Positions 11,101 to 55,115 are shown, counted from the first letter of the stretch. The stretch: 64,000 nucleotides of DNA from Clostridia bacterium (GCA_030637025.1 DAOVVV010000009.1:268-64267); one strand, 5' to 3'. Numbers and translations: made by a program. The notes: a model not told the origin generated them from the sequence alone.

Positions 11101-12413
11101 TTTTTTACGTTTCCTTTAACTATTGCTCTGGTTAACCCAATTAGCATCCAGAATGAAATTTGAATAGGGACCCAAAATAAAGCATCAACAGTAACCATAT
11201 TTATAAAAAAACCTATAAAAACAGCCGTTAATGCCCATAATAATTCTTTTATATATTTATCCTTTGTTTTTTTATAAGCTTTTATCAAATCTTTAAAAAA
11301 AACAAGAAACAATCCAATTAGAACTCCACAACCAACAATTCCTACCTCAGATAAAAAACACAGATACATATTATCAGGTGTAGGAAATTCTACTGCAGCC
11401 CCCGGTGCAATGTATTTTAAATAAACCACAGAAAAATTACCATACCCAACTCCAAAAAATGGTTTATCTTTAAGAATATTAAACGTAGTTTTATAAGACG
11501 CAGCACGGTGAGAATAAAAAATATCAGAAATTAGACGTTGATAATGAAGCCTTTCGTTAAAAGTTACTTTGGTTCGTTCAGAAAAAGAAAAAAATAATAA
11601 TATTGTTATAAAAAATATTAAAGCAGCCAAAATTATTTTTTTAAAATTTTTTCGCGAAAAATAGAAAATAGTACTAATTATTACTGCTATCCAACTACCT
11701 CGGGAAAAAGATAACATAATACTTGCTAAAAGAGATACCCCTGCAAAAATGGAAAAAATATTTATAATGCTATATCGTTTCCCAACACCAAATCCTGCCT
11801 TGTAATAAGCAAACGGTAAAAACAATACCAAATATATTGCTAATGAAACCGGGTGTCCAATTGAACTCCCAATCCGACCAGAACCATCATGTAAATACCA
11901 ATCGTAATATAAATTATAAGAACTATACAAATTATGATATATAGGACTTTTTTGTTTAATAAATTCAAGGAACCCTATAAGTGCTACTATCATACTTATT
12001 CCTAATAATAGGAAGATACCTCTTTCTATCATTTTTTTCTCTACAAACAATCTTTTACTCACAATATATACAATTATTCCGGTTAAAAAGAAATTTCCTA
12101 CTTTCGCTATCGTTTTTAAAGGGGATATACTCCCAAAAGCACTTATTAACATTACAAAAAACAACACACCAATTACTCGATCAAATAAATCTATTTTACA
12201 CAAAGATTGAAGAGAACTTTCCCATATTAATAATAAGAAAATTATTCCTAAAAAAATATGGTGCAAACAAAATGACAGCCCTAAAAAATTAATCTTTAAA
12301 AAAGGCATAAAACTAAGAGGTAAAAGGGAAACTACAATAAACAATGAACACATTAACCAAAAAAAAATCTGTTTTAAGTTTTTGATATGATATTTTTCAT
12401 TTAAAATAAACAT
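11097..12413 (-). CDS. O-antigen ligase / Wzy_C family membrane protein
   Basis: Multi-TM; SFSRGSW, PFFGVGYGNF, PDNMYL motifs. Confidence 0.85.
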   Translation of the reverse strand: MFILNEKYHIKNLKQIFFWLMCSLFIVVSLLPLSFMPFLKINFLGLSFCLHHIFLGIIFLLLIWESSLQSLCKIDLFDRVIGVLFFVMLISAFGSISPLKTIAKVGNFFLTGIIVYIVSKRLFVEKKMIERGIFLLLGISMIVALIGFLEFIKQKSPIYHNLYSSYNLYYDWYLHDGSGRIGSSIGHPVSLAIYLVLFLPFAYYKAGFGVGKRYSIINIFSIFAGVSLLASIMLSFSRGSWIAVIISTIFYFSRKNFKKIILAALIFFITILLFFSFSERTKVTFNERLHYQRLISDIFYSHRAASYKTTFNILKDKPFFGVGYGNFSVVYLKYIAPGAAVEFPTPDNMYLCFLSEVGIVGCGVLIGLFLVFFKDLIKAYKKTKDKYIKELLWALTAVFIGFFINMVTVDALFWVPIQISFWMLIGLTRAIVKGNVKN

Positions 12414-19649: not shown

Positions 19650-20925
19650 ATTTTTTTTTAAAATATCTTTTTAGTATATAGATAGTTATCAATATCACGA
19701 AAATTGATGTAATAAAATAAGTAATTCCCTGTGCTACCGCAGCACCTATCATTCCATAGCGAATTATAAAAATATAATTTAGAACACCAGAAATAGTAAT
19801 TGAACCGCAAGCTGAAAAAAAATTATATTTAATCATCCCTAAAGAAAATATTGCAACACCAAGCAAAGAATAGCAACTCCAAAAAAAATATTTTACCAGT
19901 AATATTCTAAAATAAAGACCTGCTACATTATAACTATCACCATATACAATCCTAATAAAGGGGGGAACGACTAAAAATGAAATAACAACTATACCCAAAG
20001 TAAGTAATATCATCAATTTTTCATATTTTTTTAGAACCCTTAAAAATTCCAACTTATCATTACTTTTCTCGGAAAAATACGGTGTAGCAATACTTTGAAC
20101 AGTTGTGGTTATATAATTCAATCCCAGAATAAAAATAGTTGAAAGACTATAATACCCAAAACTTACTCTATCTTTTATGAGATAATTTAACATAAAAATA
20201 TCCATATATTGCCCAATACTTCCAACTACATTACCAGCTACGCTCCATTTAGCATAAAAAAAACTTTGAGAAAAAAAACTACTTGTCTTAACTTTCTTTT
20301 TAAAATCACCTTTGACTAAATTAAGTAAAGGCACTAATGCAAAATATCCAACAATTATTGTTGCTAAAATAAAACCAACGAAACCATAAAAATAAGTTGA
20401 CACAATTAAACCAACAAAACTAAAAAGGCGTATAATTACCTGCACTTTTGCCATAAGTTGTATCTTTTTAAGCGCCTGCAAATAAACCATGATAAGTAAA
20501 GTATAGGTCATCGCAGGAATAACCAGCATATAAAGTGGAAACCATTTATTAACAGTTTTATCCGGTGATAAAAAACCTGTTTTTGCTAAAACAAAAAAAA
20601 TTCCAAGCACAAACATTATAGGAACAATCGTATAATAAAAATTTTGTTTAAATATTACTGAACGCTCTTCAAAAGATCTTTTTTCCGAACAAAGTTTTAA
20701 AACCGCTGTATTAAACCCAAATCCAGCTAAAATTATACCCACCCCAACAAATGACTGTATTGTCTTAATTTGTCCTAATTCTAGCGGCGTAAGAAATTTA
20801 GCTACTATTAATTGTGAACCAAAACCAAGAAAACCTATAATAAAATTAGCAAAAAGAAGGTGAAAAAAACCTTTATTGAAAATATTTTCAAATAATCGTA
20901 AAATCCGACTCAACTTAATAGTCAT
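19621..20925 (-). CDS. Second Wzx-type flippase
   Basis: About 12 TM segments; LTPLELG, MDIFML, GYYS, GMIGAAVA motifs. Confidence 0.85.
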   Translation of the reverse strand: MTIKLSRILRLFENIFNKGFFHLLFANFIIGFLGFGSQLIVAKFLTPLELGQIKTIQSFVGVGIILAGFGFNTAVLKLCSEKRSFEERSVIFKQNFYYTIVPIMFVLGIFFVLAKTGFLSPDKTVNKWFPLYMLVIPAMTYTLLIMVYLQALKKIQLMAKVQVIIRLFSFVGLIVSTYFYGFVGFILATIIVGYFALVPLLNLVKGDFKKKVKTSSFFSQSFFYAKWSVAGNVVGSIGQYMDIFMLNYLIKDRVSFGYYSLSTIFILGLNYITTTVQSIATPYFSEKSNDKLEFLRVLKKYEKLMILLTLGIVVISFLVVPPFIRIVYGDSYNVAGLYFRILLVKYFFWSCYSLLGVAIFSLGMIKYNFFSACGSITISGVLNYIFIIRYGMIGAAVAQGITYFITSIFVILITIYILKRYFKKKCEKERGYDI

Positions 20926-20930
20926 TAAAC

Positions 20931-33400: not shown

Positions 33401-33420
33401 ATTCCCCTCCTATTTTTTTA

Positions 33421-33452
33421 AACTCCCAACTTCAAATTTCAAACTCCAAACT
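33421..33452 (+). repeat. Heptamer tandem array AA(C/T)T(C/T)C(C/A)
   Basis: aactccc aacttca aatttca aactcca. Confidence 0.7.
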
Positions 33453-33630: not shown

Positions 33631-33811
33631 ATTTCCCTTATTCTAGACACTAACTCATAAATACTATGTCACAAATAGTCATATACTCACTTCGTTCGCG
33701 TCATATATTGTCATAAACTATGAGCTATTTGGTCTATGGACTATAAATTATTCTTTGTCTTTTGTTTTGAATTTAGTTTTTTGTATTTAGTATTTGTCTT
33801 TTATCTGTTGC

Positions 33812-33843
33812 CTATGGACTATCGACTGTGGACTATGGACTGT
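33812..33843 (+). repeat. Heptamer array CT(A/G)T(G/C)GA
   Basis: ctatgga ctatcga ctgtgga ctatgga; also at 50985 and 53773. Confidence 0.9.
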
Positions 33844-42720: not shown

Positions 42721-42924
42721 CCCGCCTTATCCGCCTAAGGCGGAGCGAACAAGCAAACTCCCAATTTTTTTTAAAACTCATTTTTTTATCTTTTCTAACC
42801 AATAAAACTGTCTTTTAACCGTCTTTATCTTTTCTCTTCGTTTTTGACTTCGTTGTTGTATTTATCCTTTAACTAATGTAACCAATTTAAACTAATTCAA
42901 CTATCTTTTAACTGTCTTTATCTT
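42721..42924 (+). repeat. Mosaic spacer: micro-hairpin (42721-42754) and nonamer array (42871-42907)
   Basis: cccgcctta-tccgcctaaggcgga-gcgaacaagc; aactaatgt aaccaattt a aactaattc aactatctt. Confidence 0.75.
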
Positions 42925-46473: not shown

Positions 46474-46529
46474 AAAATATACCCTCAAATTCCCAATTTC
46501 CCGACTTAAAGATTGGCGAACAAGCAATC

Positions 46530-46563
46530 AAATCCAAAATCCAAAATTCAAAATACTAAATTT
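46530..46563 (+). repeat. Heptamer array AAAT(C/T/A)C(A/T)
   Basis: aaatcca aaatcca aaattca aaatact. Confidence 0.75.
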
Positions 46564-46577
46564 AAAACAAAAAAAAT

Positions 46578-47057
46578 AAAGGTAAAATATGTTTTGAACG
46601 ACTTAGCAAATTTTAGCAAAAATTAGCGTTAAAAAAATAAGCTTGTCTGAGCAAAGCGAGTTGCTTATTTTTAGCTTGTTTTTGCGTGCCCGAAGGGTAA
46701 AATTACGCGTCCAGAGAAAAACATATTTTGCCTTTGTTCTCCCCCCTTAATTCTTTAGAATAAAGGTAAAATGTGTTTTGAACGACTTAGCAAATTTTAG
46801 CAAAAATTAGCGTTAAAAAAATAAACTTGTCTGAGCAAAGCGAGTTGCTTATTTTTAGCTTGTTTTTGCGTGCCCGAAGGATAAAATTATGCGTCCAGAG
46901 AAAAACATATTTTGCCTTTGTTCTCCCCCCTTAATTCTTTAGAATAAAGGTAAAATGTGTTTTGAACGACTTAGCAAATTTTAGCAAAAATTAGCGTTAA
47001 AAAAATAAGCTTGTCTGAGCAAAGCGAGTTGCTTATTTTTAGCTTGTTTTTGCCTTT
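46578..47057 (+). repeat. Tandem array of the 158-bp hairpin element (184-bp period): 46578-46735, 46762-46919 and internally deleted 46946-47057
   Basis: Direct comparison; identical 26-bp linkers; the third copy lacks 46 bp between ttttgc microhomologies. Confidence 0.95.
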
Positions 47058-50877: not shown

Positions 50878-51040
50878 CAGTCTTTTATCTTTTGACTTTG
50901 TGCCTGTCTTTATCCTTTATTTTTTAACCAATCTAACCAATCTAAACCAATTCAACTGTCTTTTTTTTGTCTGTTATCTGTAATCTATGGACTGTGGACT
51001 GTCGACTATGGACTATTTTTTTTGCTTTTGCCAGGAACTA
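50878..51040 (+). repeat. Mosaic spacer: nonamer array 50926-50962, then heptamer array 50985-51016
   Basis: aaccaatct aaccaatct a aaccaattc aactg; ctatgga ctgtgga ctgtcga ctatgga. Confidence 0.88.
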
Positions 51041-51041
51041 T

Positions 51042-51788
51042 TTACCCCTTAAACTCTTTACCCTCTGCTATCTTTATTGCCTCTTCTATTTTTATGTTTT
51101 CAGTATAAAGAGCTTTTCCAATAATTACTCCCGTTACTCCCAAATCTTCCATTTTCTTTATTTTGCTTACGTCTTCTAAACTTGCCATTCCACCGGCAAT
51201 AATTATAGAAATATTCGCTTTTAATTTCTGCAGCGTCTTTTTTATAACTTTAATATTAGGACCTTCCAATGTGCCATCTTTACTTACATCAGTAAAAATT
51301 ATTTCTGAAACCCCTACCTGTATTAACTGCTCAGCTAAAGAAAAAGCTGATTGAGAAGTTATATCCTTCCATCCGCCGATGGCTACTTTTCCATCCTGAG
51401 AATCGATACTAACAATAATTTTTTCTCCAAATTCAGCAACGCTTTTTTCTACCAGATCAGGATTAGAAATTGTTACCGTTCCTAAAATCACCTTATCCAC
51501 ACCCATGGACAAAATTTTTTTAATTGTTTTTAAATCCCTTATTCCTCCTCCTACCTGCATCGGAATAGTAATCTTCTTTCTTATTTCTTTAATAATCTTT
51601 AAATTTTGCATTACACCGGTAAATGCCCCGTCTAAATCCACCACATGCAATCTCTTAGCCCCCTTGACTTGCCAGAGATTAGCCATAAAACAAGGGTCTT
51701 TAGAAAATACAGTTTCGTTTTCCATTTTCCCCTGGGTCAAACGAACACACTGCCCTTTTCTTAAATCTACTGCCGGAATAATCTGCAT
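51042..51788 (-). CDS. hisA: ProFAR isomerase
   Basis: IIPAVDL, CVRLTQG, HVVDLDGA, QVGGGIR, DGTLEG motifs. Confidence 0.96.
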   Translation of the reverse strand: MQIIPAVDLRKGQCVRLTQGKMENETVFSKDPCFMANLWQVKGAKRLHVVDLDGAFTGVMQNLKIIKEIRKKITIPMQVGGGIRDLKTIKKILSMGVDKVILGTVTISNPDLVEKSVAEFGEKIIVSIDSQDGKVAIGGWKDITSQSAFSLAEQLIQVGVSEIIFTDVSKDGTLEGPNIKVIKKTLQKLKANISIIIAGGMASLEDVSKIKKMEDLGVTGVIIGKALYTENIKIEEAIKIAEGKEFKG

Positions 51789-51825
51789 ATATGCTTTTCC
51801 CCTTTTACTAATTTATTTCTTATAT

Positions 51826-52449
51826 TTAAAGCTTCCCTTTGGTCGAAGGAATGCCCTTTATTTTAGGATTATAAGCAACCGCTTTGGACAAAACCCGGCC
51901 AAAAGCTTTAAAAATCGCTTCCAACAAATGATGCATATTGTTGCCGGATCTGATTACTCTAATATGCAAAGAAACCTTTGCATTATCACAAAAAGCTTTA
52001 AAAAATTCTTCTATTAATTGAGGATCGAATTTCATAATCCGTATATTTTCTGATTCATAAAAATCTCTCAAAGAATCTATTACACACCTTGACCTTCCAC
52101 TAATATCTATTACTACCTGTGCTAAAACCTCATCCATCGGCACAAAAGAAGAAGCAAACCGCTCAATCCCTTTTTTATCTCCCAATGCTTTTGCTGCTGC
52201 CTCGCCCAATACTATTCCGATATCTTCTACTGTATGGTGGTCATCTACTTTTATATCCCCTGAAGCTTTAATCTGCAAATCAAACAAGCCATGTTTAGTA
52301 AATAATTCTAACATATGATTGAGAAAATGAATAGGAGTTTCTATTCTGTATTTACCTTCACCATCCAGATTCAGAATTAAATTTATCTGGGTTTCTTTAG
52401 TTATTCTTTTTATTCTTGCCAATCTTTTTGTTTTTGTTTTGCTCACCAT
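51826..52449 (-). CDS. hisB: Imidazoleglycerol-phosphate dehydratase
   Basis: DDHHTVED, NMHHLLEAIFKAF, PSTKG motifs. Confidence 0.97.
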   Translation of the reverse strand: MVSKTKTKRLARIKRITKETQINLILNLDGEGKYRIETPIHFLNHMLELFTKHGLFDLQIKASGDIKVDDHHTVEDIGIVLGEAAAKALGDKKGIERFASSFVPMDEVLAQVVIDISGRSRCVIDSLRDFYESENIRIMKFDPQLIEEFFKAFCDNAKVSLHIRVIRSGNNMHHLLEAIFKAFGRVLSKAVAYNPKIKGIPSTKGKL

Positions 52450-53671
52450 TCCCTCCCTTTGTTTGCTTTGTTTTCAATCTTATCCCCCGCACAGAACCAA
52501 TTAGTCTTTGCTTCACAGAATTCACATGTTCCTTTAATCCTTCCATTTCTGCCAATTTAATGATATCCCGACTGCATCTTTTAAATGCTTCTTCGCTGTA
52601 AAAAATAAGGCTGGTTCTCCTTATAAAATCATACACGGAAAGCCCTGAAGAAAATCTTGCCGTTTTCCCGGTAGGAAGGGTATGGGAAGGGCCCGCAAAA
52701 TAATCCCCCAAAGCTACCGGAGAATAATCACCTAAAAATATTGCCCCTGCATTTTTTATTTTAATCAACATTTTCTCCGGATTTTTAGTTAAAATTTCTA
52801 AATGTTCCGGGGCCTCTTGATTAATAATCTTAATTGCTTCCCCTAAATCTTTTACTTTAAAAAATTTAATTTGTTTTAAATTAAATCCTTTCTTGATTTT
52901 TTTAAGTTTAATTTTTATTTTTTTTATTAAATCCCCGGAAGTAGTGACCAAACCTGCTTTAGCCTTTTGGTCATGTTCCAATTGGGCCAAAAAATCCGAA
53001 ATAATATAATCAATATTTGATGATTGGTCGGCAAGAATCATTACCTCACTGGGCCCGGCCAACATGTCAATTCCTACTTCACCAAAAAGCAATTTTTTAG
53101 CACAGGTTACATAAACATTTCCCGGGCCTACAATTTTATCTACCCTGGGTAAAGTCTTTGTTCCATAAGCAAGTGCAGCAATTGCCGGAACCCCGCCAAC
53201 CCTATAAATTTTATCCACCCCACAAATATCTGCTGCTACTAATACCTCCGAAGTTAAATTATTCGGGGGAGAAACCATAATCACCTGCGTAACCCCGGCA
53301 ACCTTCGCCGGTAAAACATTCATTAATACACATGAGGAATAAGGATATTTTCCTCCGGGAATATAGACTCCCACCCTTTCCAATGGCTGCCAGATGTCCC
53401 CCAAAAGAATTCCTTTTTCATTACTGTACCAGCTTTTTATTTTCTGTTTTTTATGAAAATTTTCAATATTCAACTTTGCTTTTTTCAGCGCTATGACAAA
53501 ATCCTTATCTACTTTCTTATAAGCATTTTCAATTTCTTTCTTTTTCACTAACAATATTTCCGGACGCAGTTTTACCCCATCAAATTTTTGAGTATAAAAA
53601 CAAACCGCTTTATCACCTTTTATTTTCACTTCTTCAATAATTTTTTTAACCTGTCTTTCTATTTTATCCAT
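52397..53671 (-). CDS. hisD: Histidinol dehydrogenase
   Basis: GVYIPGG, IVGPGN, IDMLAGPSE, APEHLE, GDYFAGPSHTLPT motifs. Confidence 0.96.
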   Translation of the reverse strand: MDKIERQVKKIIEEVKIKGDKAVCFYTQKFDGVKLRPEILLVKKKEIENAYKKVDKDFVIALKKAKLNIENFHKKQKIKSWYSNEKGILLGDIWQPLERVGVYIPGGKYPYSSCVLMNVLPAKVAGVTQVIMVSPPNNLTSEVLVAADICGVDKIYRVGGVPAIAALAYGTKTLPRVDKIVGPGNVYVTCAKKLLFGEVGIDMLAGPSEVMILADQSSNIDYIISDFLAQLEHDQKAKAGLVTTSGDLIKKIKIKLKKIKKGFNLKQIKFFKVKDLGEAIKIINQEAPEHLEILTKNPEKMLIKIKNAGAIFLGDYSPVALGDYFAGPSHTLPTGKTARFSSGLSVYDFIRRTSLIFYSEEAFKRCSRDIIKLAEMEGLKEHVNSVKQRLIGSVRGIRLKTKQTKGGNGEQNKNKKIGKNKKNN

Positions 53672-53694
53672 AAAAAAACTCTCTAAATTTTAAT

Positions 53695-53856
53695 TTTTTG
53701 CCTTTATCTTCTTTCTTTAGCTATAAGCCATTTGCCATTCACAGTCTTTTGTCTTTGTCTGTTATCCGTAATCTATGGACTATCGACTGTGGACTGTCTT
53801 TTGTTTTTTTCTTTTAACTAATATAACTAATAAAACCAATCTAAACCAACTAACTG
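53695..53856 (+). repeat. Mosaic spacer: heptamer array 53773-53798, then nonamer array 53816-53856
   Basis: ctatgga ctatcga ctgtgga; aactaatat aactaataa aaccaatct a aaccaact aactg. Confidence 0.88.
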
Positions 53857-55115
53857 TTTTTATCTCCTTCTCTCCTTATTTGAGCTCCCAATTGACTTAA
53901 CTTACTTTCTATTGATTCATATCCCCTATCTAAATGGTAAATATCACTAATAGAGGTTTCTCCCTCAGCAATTAACCCGGCTAAAACTAAAGCTGCAGAA
54001 GCACGTAAATCCGTAGCTCTCACCGGAACCCCGCTTAATTTATGAACCCCATTAATCACCGCTAAATTTCCTCTGACTTGAATATCAGCACCCATCCGCT
54101 GTAATTCCCCTACATGCATGAACCTATTTTCAAAAACAGTTTCAGAAATGATACTTTCACCTGAAATGACACTCATAAAAGCCATCCATTGTGCCTGCAT
54201 ATCCGTAGGAAATCCCGGATAAGGAGAAGTATTAATACCTATTGATTTCAAACCTTCGGGTACGCTTACCTCCATTGTGTTTTTATCAATTTTTATTTCT
54301 ACCCCTGCTTCCTTCGCCCTGGCTATTACTATTTCTAAATGCGTTGGATTTACATTTAATATTTTTACTCTACCCCGCGTAAGTGCTACTGCCAGCAAAT
54401 AAGTTCCCGTTTCAATTCTATCGGGAATTACCGAATGCTCAGTTCCTTTCAACTCCTTTACCCCATGAATTTCTATAATATTTGTTCCTGCATTAAAAAT
54501 CCTCGCCCCCATTTTATTTAAAAAAGAAGCTAAATCTACAATTTCCGGTTCACAAGCTACATTTTCTAAAAGGGTCTTTCCTTTAGCCAAAACAGCAGCC
54601 ATCATCAGATTTTCTGTTGCTCCGACACTGGGAAAATCTAAAAATATTTTTTCTCCTTTAAGCCCTTTTTTAGCCGATAAATGAATAAAACCTTCATGAA
54701 TATTTATCTGTGCACCCAATTTTTTAAATCCATCTAAATGTAAGTTTATCGGCCGGGAACCTATAGCACAACCCCCGGGTAAAGAAACCTTAACCTCTCT
54801 ATAACGGGCTAGAAGCGGTCCCATTACCAAAACAGAGGCTCTCATTCTACTTACCAGGTCATATGGCGCTTCCAAACAAATATTACCTGAAGAAGATATC
54901 CATACGTGATCATTCTCTCTTTTTATTGTTTTCCCTAAATGTGTCAGCAAAGAAATAATAGTCTTTACATCATACAAATGAGGAACACTAGCTACAGAAC
55001 ACAGTTCATCGGTTAATAAAGTAGCCATCAGGATTGGTAAAGAAGCATTTTTTGAACCACTTATTGTTAGGGTTCCTTCTAATTTTTTTCCACCATTAAT
55101 AATTATTTTATTCAT
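53850..55115 (-). CDS. murA: UDP-N-acetylglucosamine 1-carboxyvinyltransferase
   Basis: SGSKNA, MRAS, LPGGCAIG, PGFPTDMQ, DLRA, HLDRGYE motifs. Confidence 0.98.
   Translation of the reverse strand: MNKIIINGGKKLEGTLTISGSKNASLPILMATLLTDELCSVASVPHLYDVKTIISLLTHLGKTIKRENDHVWISSSGNICLEAPYDLVSRMRASVLVMGPLLARYREVKVSLPGGCAIGSRPINLHLDGFKKLGAQINIHEGFIHLSAKKGLKGEKIFLDFPSVGATENLMMAAVLAKGKTLLENVACEPEIVDLASFLNKMGARIFNAGTNIIEIHGVKELKGTEHSVIPDRIETGTYLLAVALTRGRVKILNVNPTHLEIVIARAKEAGVEIKIDKNTMEVSVPEGLKSIGINTSPYPGFPTDMQAQWMAFMSVISGESIISETVFENRFMHVGELQRMGADIQVRGNLAVINGVHKLSGVPVRATDLRASAALVLAGLIAEGETSISDIYHLDRGYESIESKLSQLGAQIRREGDKNS

Follow-up and report, generated by a model that had tools for sequence, protein, structure and literature searches.

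We analyzed a 64,000-nucleotide stretch of DNA (GCA_030637025.1 DAOVVV010000009.1:268-64267; hereafter the window) in which the spacers between successive genes, among them the hisA–hisI and murA–hisD spacers in the region 50,878 to 53,856, carry arrays of short tandem units: heptamers of the form CTRTSGA and AACYAAT-type units of 9 to 10 nt. A single rule describes how the arrays lie: read 5′→3′, the T-rich (GACT-type) strand points to the nearest open reading frame (ORF). The arrays are most likely lineage-specific members of a class of polar intergenic short tandem repeats, namely heptamers of the type known as short tandemly repeated repetitive (STRR) sequences or long simple-sequence repeats (SSRs), joined by one family of 9- to 10-nt units. 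The evidence leans toward their being dispensable filler that is copied in blocks and either generated or tolerated in one polarity at gene ends; most likely, they have no locus-specific regulatory role.

The window is contig C35 of an assembly (G000; 2.36 Mb, 33.5% GC, 77 contigs, 97.8% complete) that derives, according to its run labels, from an uncultured cold-seep bacterium. In the GTDB set searched, the phylum of this bacterium consists of four species-level genomes in only one genus, and the three sister genomes (G001 to G003) share 81 to 87% DNA identity with G000 in the his and trp regions. Genes were called crudely, as the longest ORFs of at least 70 amino acids (1,985 ORFs covering 88.7% of G000), modules were defined by regular expressions, and the genome-wide analysis refers to G000. 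Heptamer units are lettered A (CTATGGA), B (CTGTGGA), C (CTATCGA), and D (CTGTCGA), and blocks of these CTRTSGA heptamers are called H.

Strict heptamer arrays of two or more units number 71 in G000, 5 of them inside called ORFs, and the co-directional spacers that bear a module (99 of 1,233) have a median length of 322 nt, versus 95 nt for those without one. The flanks of the arrays hold at least seven further short-unit families, with the T-rich strand always on the same side as CTATGGA: G (GTCTTT filler), D (AACYGTCTTT), N (AACCAAT arrays), P (TGTGCCT blocks), Y (ATAACT blocks), W (TTGCCAT blocks), and V (ATTTAG blocks). Since N arrays always end in ..CAAC(T/C)GTCTTT, N plus D constitutes one element of about 40 to 60 nt, here termed N-D. 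Strict heptamer runs comprise two units in 23 cases, three in 8, four in 37, five in 1, and six in 2, and the 37 four-unit runs are dominated by one order (ACBA, 28 runs), followed by AADA (5), BADA (2), ABDA (1, at 50985), and ACAA (1). The preference for four units in G000 thus arises because one 28-mer is copied. Longer composites recur kilobases apart at distant loci and in both orientations (261 nt at 87% identity and 198 nt at 89%). Run lengths, unit orders, and composites together show that slippage alone is insufficient, which bears out the initial annotation (a reading of the window made from its sequence) in its argument that local slippage does not explain sharing between distant spacers. 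The large inverted composites were also considered as inversion borders, which is ruled out by the genes inside and outside them keeping one direction.

All four genomes of the genus carry such arrays (93, 299, 82, and 38 overlapping three-unit matches, against none for a reversed-pattern control), all four contain N arrays, and in G003 three-unit pieces of the two commonest orders are the most frequent among the matches listed. This mosaic of at least eight block families, fixed in internal order, copied as blocks, and common to a genus, is new here. Most arrays in G000 are solo arms and not hairpin pairs. As a separate matter, a hairpin repeat with the core GTCATTCCTGCGAAAGCAGGAATC occurs in about 45 copies, with an orientation ratio of 25:35, as expected of a palindrome.

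The polarity of the families was scored as the number of matches, in spacers between co-directional genes, with the T-rich form sense or antisense. The sense-to-antisense ratio is 19:36 for H, 0:47 for N, 3:74 for D, 3:15 for G, 11:40 for P, 5:14 for Y, 0:5 for W, and 13:4 for V. Where the T-rich form is antisense, the array follows the upstream stop codon immediately; where it is sense, the array occupies the distal end of the spacer, close to the following start. Counted by the nearest ORF, the ORF lies 3′ rather than 5′ of the T-rich strand in 53 versus 11 cases for H (p = 1e-7), 35 versus 12 for N, 72 versus 25 for D, 29 versus 9 for P, and 22 versus 6 for Y. The nearest gene end is a stop codon more often than a start (45:19 for H and 43:4 for N); arrays after stops begin a median of 19 nt past the stop (n = 76), and arrays before starts end a median of 60 nt ahead of the start (n = 28). 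Among the 55 spacers with at least two module matches, 50 are uniform in orientation, and the 5 mixed ones all place the antisense-T-rich (post-stop) arm first. As the heptamers flip between post-stop and pre-start positions, neither transcription nor replication direction alone sets their orientation. The confinement of a lineage-specific 9- to 10-nt element to the first nucleotides after stop codons is likewise new here.

Base composition does not reduce to a comparable rule. The strand of CTRTSGA arrays that runs away from the gene has more C than G, and among arrays of period 7 detected with Tandem Repeats Finder (TRF) the strand leading away from the gene shows G<C in 74 cases and G>C in 50; the N-D family conforms to the G-carrying form of the polarity rule. 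No single composition rule holds across TRF arrays of periods 6 to 11, be it G over C (141:121), purine (127:118), A over T (156:118), or keto content. Spacers showed no general tendency to be A-rich and then T-rich, and backup stop codons as a cause of orientation show no consistent pattern between module strands, as judged by inspection. On contig C56, a tRNA gene at about 29.6 to 29.8 kb is directly preceded, at about 40 nt, by sense-T-rich V and H arrays.

In the window, the minus strand carries every gene between 30 and 58 kb, and NCBIfam confirms hisI, hisA, hisB, hisD, murA, prmC, trpA, accD, and rmlA. Four spacers concern us: hisA–hisI (167 nt), murA–hisD (178 nt), trpA–accD (230 nt), and rmlA–cupin (463 nt). 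In the first, a four-unit H block of order ABDA (50985-51012, T-rich on the plus strand) starts 29 nt past the hisA stop, and its AGTC-type complement falls on the mRNA, that is, on the minus strand. Next to it on the plus strand lie a linker, tttgtctgttatctgtaat (50966-50984), composed of the heptamer units CTGTTAT and CTGTAAT in the 7-nt register of the block; an N-D element of three AACCAAT-type units of 9 to 10 nt that ends in CAACTGTCTTT (50926-50963); and a second linker, ttttgacttt..tttatccttta (50890-50919), which includes one TGTGCCT (P-type) unit and recurs at 42842-42871. The murA–hisD spacer has its modules, also on the plus strand, in reversed order: a linker, tttgtctgttatccgtaat (53754-53772), made of CTGTTAT and CCGTAAT and differing by one change from the string at 50966-50984; an H block with the strict units ACB followed in register by CTGTCTT (53773-53793); and an N-D element (53816-53861) that encloses the murA stop TAG (53850-53852, minus strand). 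Past the trpA stop (42925) by 5 nt lies an N-D element (42871-42919, plus), with a short N-D copy, aaccaataaaactgtcttttaaccgtcttt, in the same spacer (42797-42826, plus), and past the rmlA stop (33864) by 24 nt lies an H block with the dominant ACBA order, a 28-mer of which the genome holds 28 copies (33812-33839, plus). The linkers do not form a sequence class of their own, since they read as further heptamers (CTGTTAT, CTGTAAT, and CTGTCTT) in register with the CTATGGA units.

These observations agree with the initial annotation on the presence of the heptamer arrays at 33812, 50985, and 53773 with differing unit orders (ACBA, ABDA, and ACB), of the AACYAAT-type arrays at 42871, 50926, and 53816, and of both recurring linkers, as well as on the reversal of module order between the two spacers, the murA stop inside an array, and the closeness of arrays to stop codons, all of its listed families being post-stop in the window. 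Its claim of a single orientation holds for those listed families and fails elsewhere, both genome-wide, where heptamers in co-directional spacers divide 36 to 19, and inside the window, where two arrays before starts have the opposite polarity. One, of GTTTGGA/GTTTGAA-type heptamers on the coding minus strand (33420-33452), precedes the cupin gene, about 20 nt upstream of its ribosome-binding site; the other, of V-type heptamers that are T-rich on the coding minus strand (46530-46567), abuts a TTG start at 46527. The uniformity that had been noticed exists because all the listed arrays follow stop codons within a single co-directional row of genes. In the vicinity of these two arrays, a TATGAC-type repeat (33650-33720, minus) closely resembles the right flank of the second of the S23p genes on contig C7 discussed below, and a 184-nt unit occurs in 2.6 tandem copies at 46575-47053 and in about 40 dispersed copies in the genome; its core, GGGTAAAATTAYGCG, is found 0 times sense and 36 times antisense in co-directional spacers and often precedes V and H arrays ahead of a start codon.

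The two-unit heptamer pattern has eight matches in the window and none in 100 shuffles. The nonamer pattern is marginal within the window (3 matches versus 0.32 expected, a number that 1 of 100 shuffles reached) but secure genome-wide, with 47 matches in co-directional spacers in a single orientation. The arrays had also been described as A/G-rich, which is true of the spacers (63 to 67% purine, 8 to 13% C) but not of the heptamer blocks, which at 46 to 48% purine and 29 to 32% C are the sole C-rich patches of these spacers; N-D blocks are nearly free of C (2 to 4%). The mRNA-sense folding of three spacers is no better than that of shuffles (z-scores of −0.09, −1.18, and −0.10), which confirms the suggestion that the arrays are unstructured. 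An Rfam scan of the whole window at gathering scores returned no matches, and the three spacers covered by a scan for promoter- or terminator-like consensus showed none on their coding strand. The coding strand has no ATG in the hisA–hisI spacer and two in the murA–hisD spacer, with four to five stops per frame in both.

Block content turns over rapidly between relatives. At three orthologous spacers compared across four species, length (133 to 687 nt) and block families differ, with polarity kept. In the hisA–hisI spacer, G003 retains N-D without H, G001 has the linker and an ACBA block, and G002 has P, Y, and a hairpin element, with contigs that break within the spacer. The murA–hisD spacer measures about 180 nt in G000 and several hundred nucleotides in G001 and G002 (the stretches of 216 to 687 nt displayed for it include some flanking gene sequence), and N-D beside the murA stop is kept in three of the four genomes. 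Past the trpA stop, N-D is present in G000 and G003, an H-like block in G001, and Y plus H in G002. Within an independent cold-seep/sediment run, one contig (depth, 4.6) joins hisD and murA with 184 nt replaced by 95 other letters. Block content is thus exchanged between species and, probably, between strains too.

Outside the lineage, three-unit CTRTSGA arrays occur at no fewer than 123 loci in many phyla, some of them in coding DNA; the phyla among the matches listed are Cyanobacteria (Anabaena azotica, Westiellopsis, and Leptolyngbyaceae among the genomes), Bacteroidota, Acidobacteriota, Gemmatimonadota, Chloroflexota, Verrucomicrobiota, Chlamydiota, Omnitrophica, and Ratteibacteria. No such arrays were matched in 37 other genomes sampled as relatives. 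Among the loci listed, a complementary array lies within 300 nt on the 5′ side at 34, on the 3′ side at 1, on both sides at 1, and on neither at 89, and the closer ORF-like stretch is found 3′ of the CTRTSGA strand at 60 versus 22, with 28 undecided; for listed arrays without a partner, the ratio is 37 versus 16. One locus, in a metagenome-assembled genome (MAG) of Candidatus Ratteibacteria (L023), carries an exact copy of the ACBA 28-mer extended by one unit and paired with a complementary arm that lies upstream. The junction of N and D was matched once outside the genus, in a JGI metagenome contig, apparently inside a coding stretch of an unrelated contig, and this match looks like chance. 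A search of 2.9 million viral contigs yielded neither the 28-mer nor the N-D junction, and a phage or plasmid vector was set aside on that absence from the viral contigs searched.

The reading of the arrays as block-copied filler runs as follows. A module is a block of about four diverged units within GTCTTT-type heptamer filler, mostly in a 7-nt register, and it is whole blocks that spread between spacers, perhaps by nonallelic gene conversion or by template switching over the shared filler. Slippage within blocks is only occasional, and their gain, loss, and exchange among species and strains are rapid. The nearest gene end, and not transcription or replication as such, governs orientation, so that post-stop arrays place the AGTC-type complement on the mRNA and pre-start arrays are flipped.

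Several points weigh against this reading. N-D is never flipped before starts in co-directional spacers (0/47; 3/77 for D alone), a restriction that a pure nearest-gene-end rule does not predict, and its single sense orientation leaves room for an RNA-level role of N-D. The three orthologous spacers hold arrays of the same polarity in every species in which the spacer was recovered, which could reflect a need for some array and not only a hot spot. The two commonest four-unit orders are present also in G003, arrays are present in all four species, and the 28-mer is present in the Ratteibacteria MAG; such conservation of blocks exceeds that expected of neutral filler at about 85% coding identity, unless copying is continuous. 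No copying machinery was identified, gene conversion being an inference, and distances to start codons are approximate, gene calls being longest ORFs. Transcription and replication are, moreover, confounded in G000. The initial annotation had asked for a map of orientation against both: the map gives a clearly nonrandom orientation, but the one-strand share of genes is about 90% or more on most large contigs, contig GC skew is about ±0.25, and the two quantities correlate at r = 0.98 (contigs of >15 kb), so replication and transcription as causes of orientation are not separable here.

An RNA-level explanation restates the polarity rule exactly: every transcript that exits a gene, be it a sense RNA that passes the stop or an antisense RNA that passes the start, would bear the same array strand as a signal. 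On such transcripts, the heptamer strand would form an unstructured patch rich in C, with UC or CC dimers at 7-nt intervals in a C-poor spacer, which could load Rho or a different binder of single-stranded RNA, such as S1 or cold-shock proteins. The C-free N-D element could have the opposite effect and protect operon spacers that are long and untranslated. The contrast in C content between H blocks, N-D, and their spacers fits this picture, as do the unstructured spacers, the presence of one Rho gene, and the constant sense of N-D (0:47), and post-transcriptional binding has been proposed for TAACTGA arrays (MacGregor 2015, PMC4679880). However, block families interchange at orthologous spacers (N-D, H, or Y with H past the trpA stop), and C-rich and C-free blocks co-occur within spacers. 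The strand that exits the gene is G-rich in the published families, contrary to the preference of Rho, and a 28-nt block is shorter than the usual Rho loading site. Neither CsrA, as a reader of GGA motifs in sense-oriented blocks, nor a NusG paralogue was found in the genome, which has one NusG. Overall, we consider an exit signal unlikely. The related proposal in the initial annotation, protein-binding RNA arrays for antitermination or stability in very long operons, gained no positive support: it predicts one sense orientation, whereas heptamer blocks flip between post-stop and pre-start positions, block content is swapped at orthologous spacers, and the genome has a single NusG.

Mobile or enzymatic origins fare no better. 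A dedicated trans-acting DNA enzyme or a small mobile cassette might move or lay down the blocks, with scattered blocks as its footprints or solo arms, and a candidate exists in an S23p (PF05635) four-helix-bundle gene set between inverted heptamer arrays. Contig C7 holds two S23p genes (20574-20927 and about 11814-12125): the dominant 28-mer lies 85 nt downstream of one, and the other lies between imperfect inverted AGTCA-/TGACT-type flanks (alignment score, 50, versus 28 ± 5 and at most 46 for shuffles). Block orders that are fixed and common to species, and a unit type and arm order that recur in many phyla, suit such a cassette. Yet there are two S23p genes for about 100 module-bearing spacers, one of them may adjoin a block by chance (a block occurs in about 4% of spacers; estimated p of about 0.08), the 28-mer and the N-D junction are unmatched in the viral contigs, and no target-site duplications or defined ends were seen, as the blocks merge in register into filler. 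The link between S23p and the arrays is weak, and an enzyme or cassette of this kind is, in our judgment, improbable; of the partner genes that had been suggested, the four-helix-bundle protein is thus present, while a reverse transcriptase and a NusG paralogue are not. Ends of decayed insertion sequences (IS) or remnants of MITEs (miniature inverted-repeat transposable elements) would likewise be dispersed and intergenic and could account for long composites in both orientations, but neither terminal inverted repeats nor a hairpin occur in the window spacers, the tandem units keep the register of the filler, and no transposase-bearing full-length copy turned up in the spacer comparisons (a search that was not exhaustive). 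Random orientation together with arrays that are decayed ends of a known IS would have marked such remnants; instead, orientation relative to gene ends is strongly nonrandom and no IS ends in arrays among the material examined, making this origin highly unlikely. Scarcely any weight falls on the addition of repeats from an RNA template by a reverse transcriptase or telomerase-like enzyme, which the initial annotation had also entertained. The fixed unit order within blocks would agree with templated synthesis, but the blocks are internal to spacers and not at DNA ends, and PF00078 (RVT_1) has no match in the 97.8%-complete genome, whereas control genomes were matched.

A broader claim may be entertained with considerable doubt: that a polar, sequence-specific process marks gene ends in many phyla independently of G-richness and G-quadruplexes, with the AGTC-type heptamer strand always pointing away (5′→3′) from the ORF, written about four units at a time and rewritten block by block between strains. 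If true, there would be a conserved trans-acting factor, possibly the S23p protein, that lays down or selects arrays at ORF borders or, alternatively, a factor whose targets are all transcripts that leave a gene, whichever way they run, and at least eight block families, including a stop-codon-specific 9- to 10-nt element, would have diversified in this lineage. That heptamer repeats occur at gene ends has been known since 1990, and they are, to our knowledge, still without an explanation; the best account in print attributes both their preference for four units and their polarity to the formation of G-quadruplexes. A 28-mer, an element of about 45 nt, four sister genomes, and fast turnover make the present arrays a compact test system, one that could separate selfish filler from transcript-exit signals and from footprints of an unknown DNA enzyme. 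For annotation, the lesson is one of caution: uniform orientation along a co-directional row of genes does not show a link to transcription.

Among known repeat systems, the bacterial interspersed mosaic elements (BIMEs) of enterobacteria are similar in being intergenic mosaics of a few short motif families that linkers connect in variable combinations (PMC3333891, PMC2817692). They are, however, built from palindromic repetitive extragenic palindromic (REP) hairpins that alternate and are tied to REP-associated tyrosine transposases (RAYTs), whereas the units here are nonpalindromic, tandem, and co-oriented in 50 of 55 spacers. The interspersed repetitive units of mycobacteria (MIRUs) also lie between operon genes in one orientation, but they are described as inserting at start codons and as carrying a small ORF whose translation is coupled to that of the downstream gene (PMC12548453); the present arrays are mostly post-stop, and the hisA–hisI spacer lacks an ATG. 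The arrays are thus not BIMEs, because they lack palindromes, not MIRUs, because they lack a coupled ORF, and not products of a reverse transcriptase, because none was found.

STRR heptamers were reportedly described in heterocystous cyanobacteria by Mazel and colleagues in 1990. These and the long SSRs of prokaryotes (Mrazek et al. 2007, as summarized in PMC4679880) resemble the present arrays in being heptanucleotide tandem arrays dispersed in noncoding DNA, and the occurrence of CTRTSGA units in cyanobacteria extends the likeness to the unit type itself. The host here is, by contrast, a noncyanobacterial genome of 2.4 Mb and 33.5% GC, the arrays are short fixed blocks and not long variable ones, and a 9- to 10-nt family is added. 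Closer in some respects are the TAACTGA direct repeats found in marine Beggiatoaceae, Cyanobacteria, and Bacteroidetes, with 147 of 170 sets facing a start codon (MacGregor 2015, PMC4679880). Like the present arrays, they are sets of heptamers (two to six units there), oriented by genes and scattered over phyla, with no known mechanism of transfer so far as that account goes, and it counts the frequent lack of a canonical ribosome-binding site among their traits, a further likeness. They lie mostly right before starts, whereas ours lie mostly after stops and combine many unit families.

The nearest relatives are the G-rich heptamers of Xanthomonas (GGGAATC) and Nostoc PCC 7120 [GGGGA(C/T)T], for which Rehm et al. 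(2015, PMC4692102) report a preference for four units, 70 to 75 convergent pairs, sites between aligned ORFs and within 50 bp of stop or start codons, and a nearest ORF whose side relative to the repeat is constant, whichever way the ORF points; the four units are explained there by the formation of G-quadruplexes. For Nostoc, a preprint (10.1101/2022.06.06.494920) describes modest effects that heptamer repeats have on the expression of recF and recO. Polarity, four-unit preference, and inverted pairs were therefore already published for those heptamers (PMC4692102), and the arrays analyzed here share each of them: 7-nt tandem units enriched in noncoding DNA (5 of 71 in called ORFs, in a genome about 89% covered by ORFs), strand set by the nearest gene end in proximity to stop and start codons (H, D, and N alike), four units in 37 of 71 multiunit runs, inverted pairs with a fixed arm order (5 of 5 mixed spacers and 34:1 among the loci listed in other phyla), and lengths that differ between related species, with fast change at the three orthologous spacers of our four. 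They differ in having a fixed internal unit order, block copying, and several families combined in mosaics. The units also appear to form no canonical G-quadruplex, the dominant block having only three GG runs, and, of the two CTRTSGA strands, the one richer in C leads away from the gene, opposite to the published G-rich rule. That CTRTSGA keeps the geometry of the rule with a C-richer leading strand and, judging from its sequence, without canonical quadruplexes is new here. Because four-unit preference, polarity, and arm order are all found in this apparently nonquadruplex family, with the C-richer strand leading in the cross-phylum sample as well, the comparison argues that the quadruplex account of gene-end heptamers is not general.

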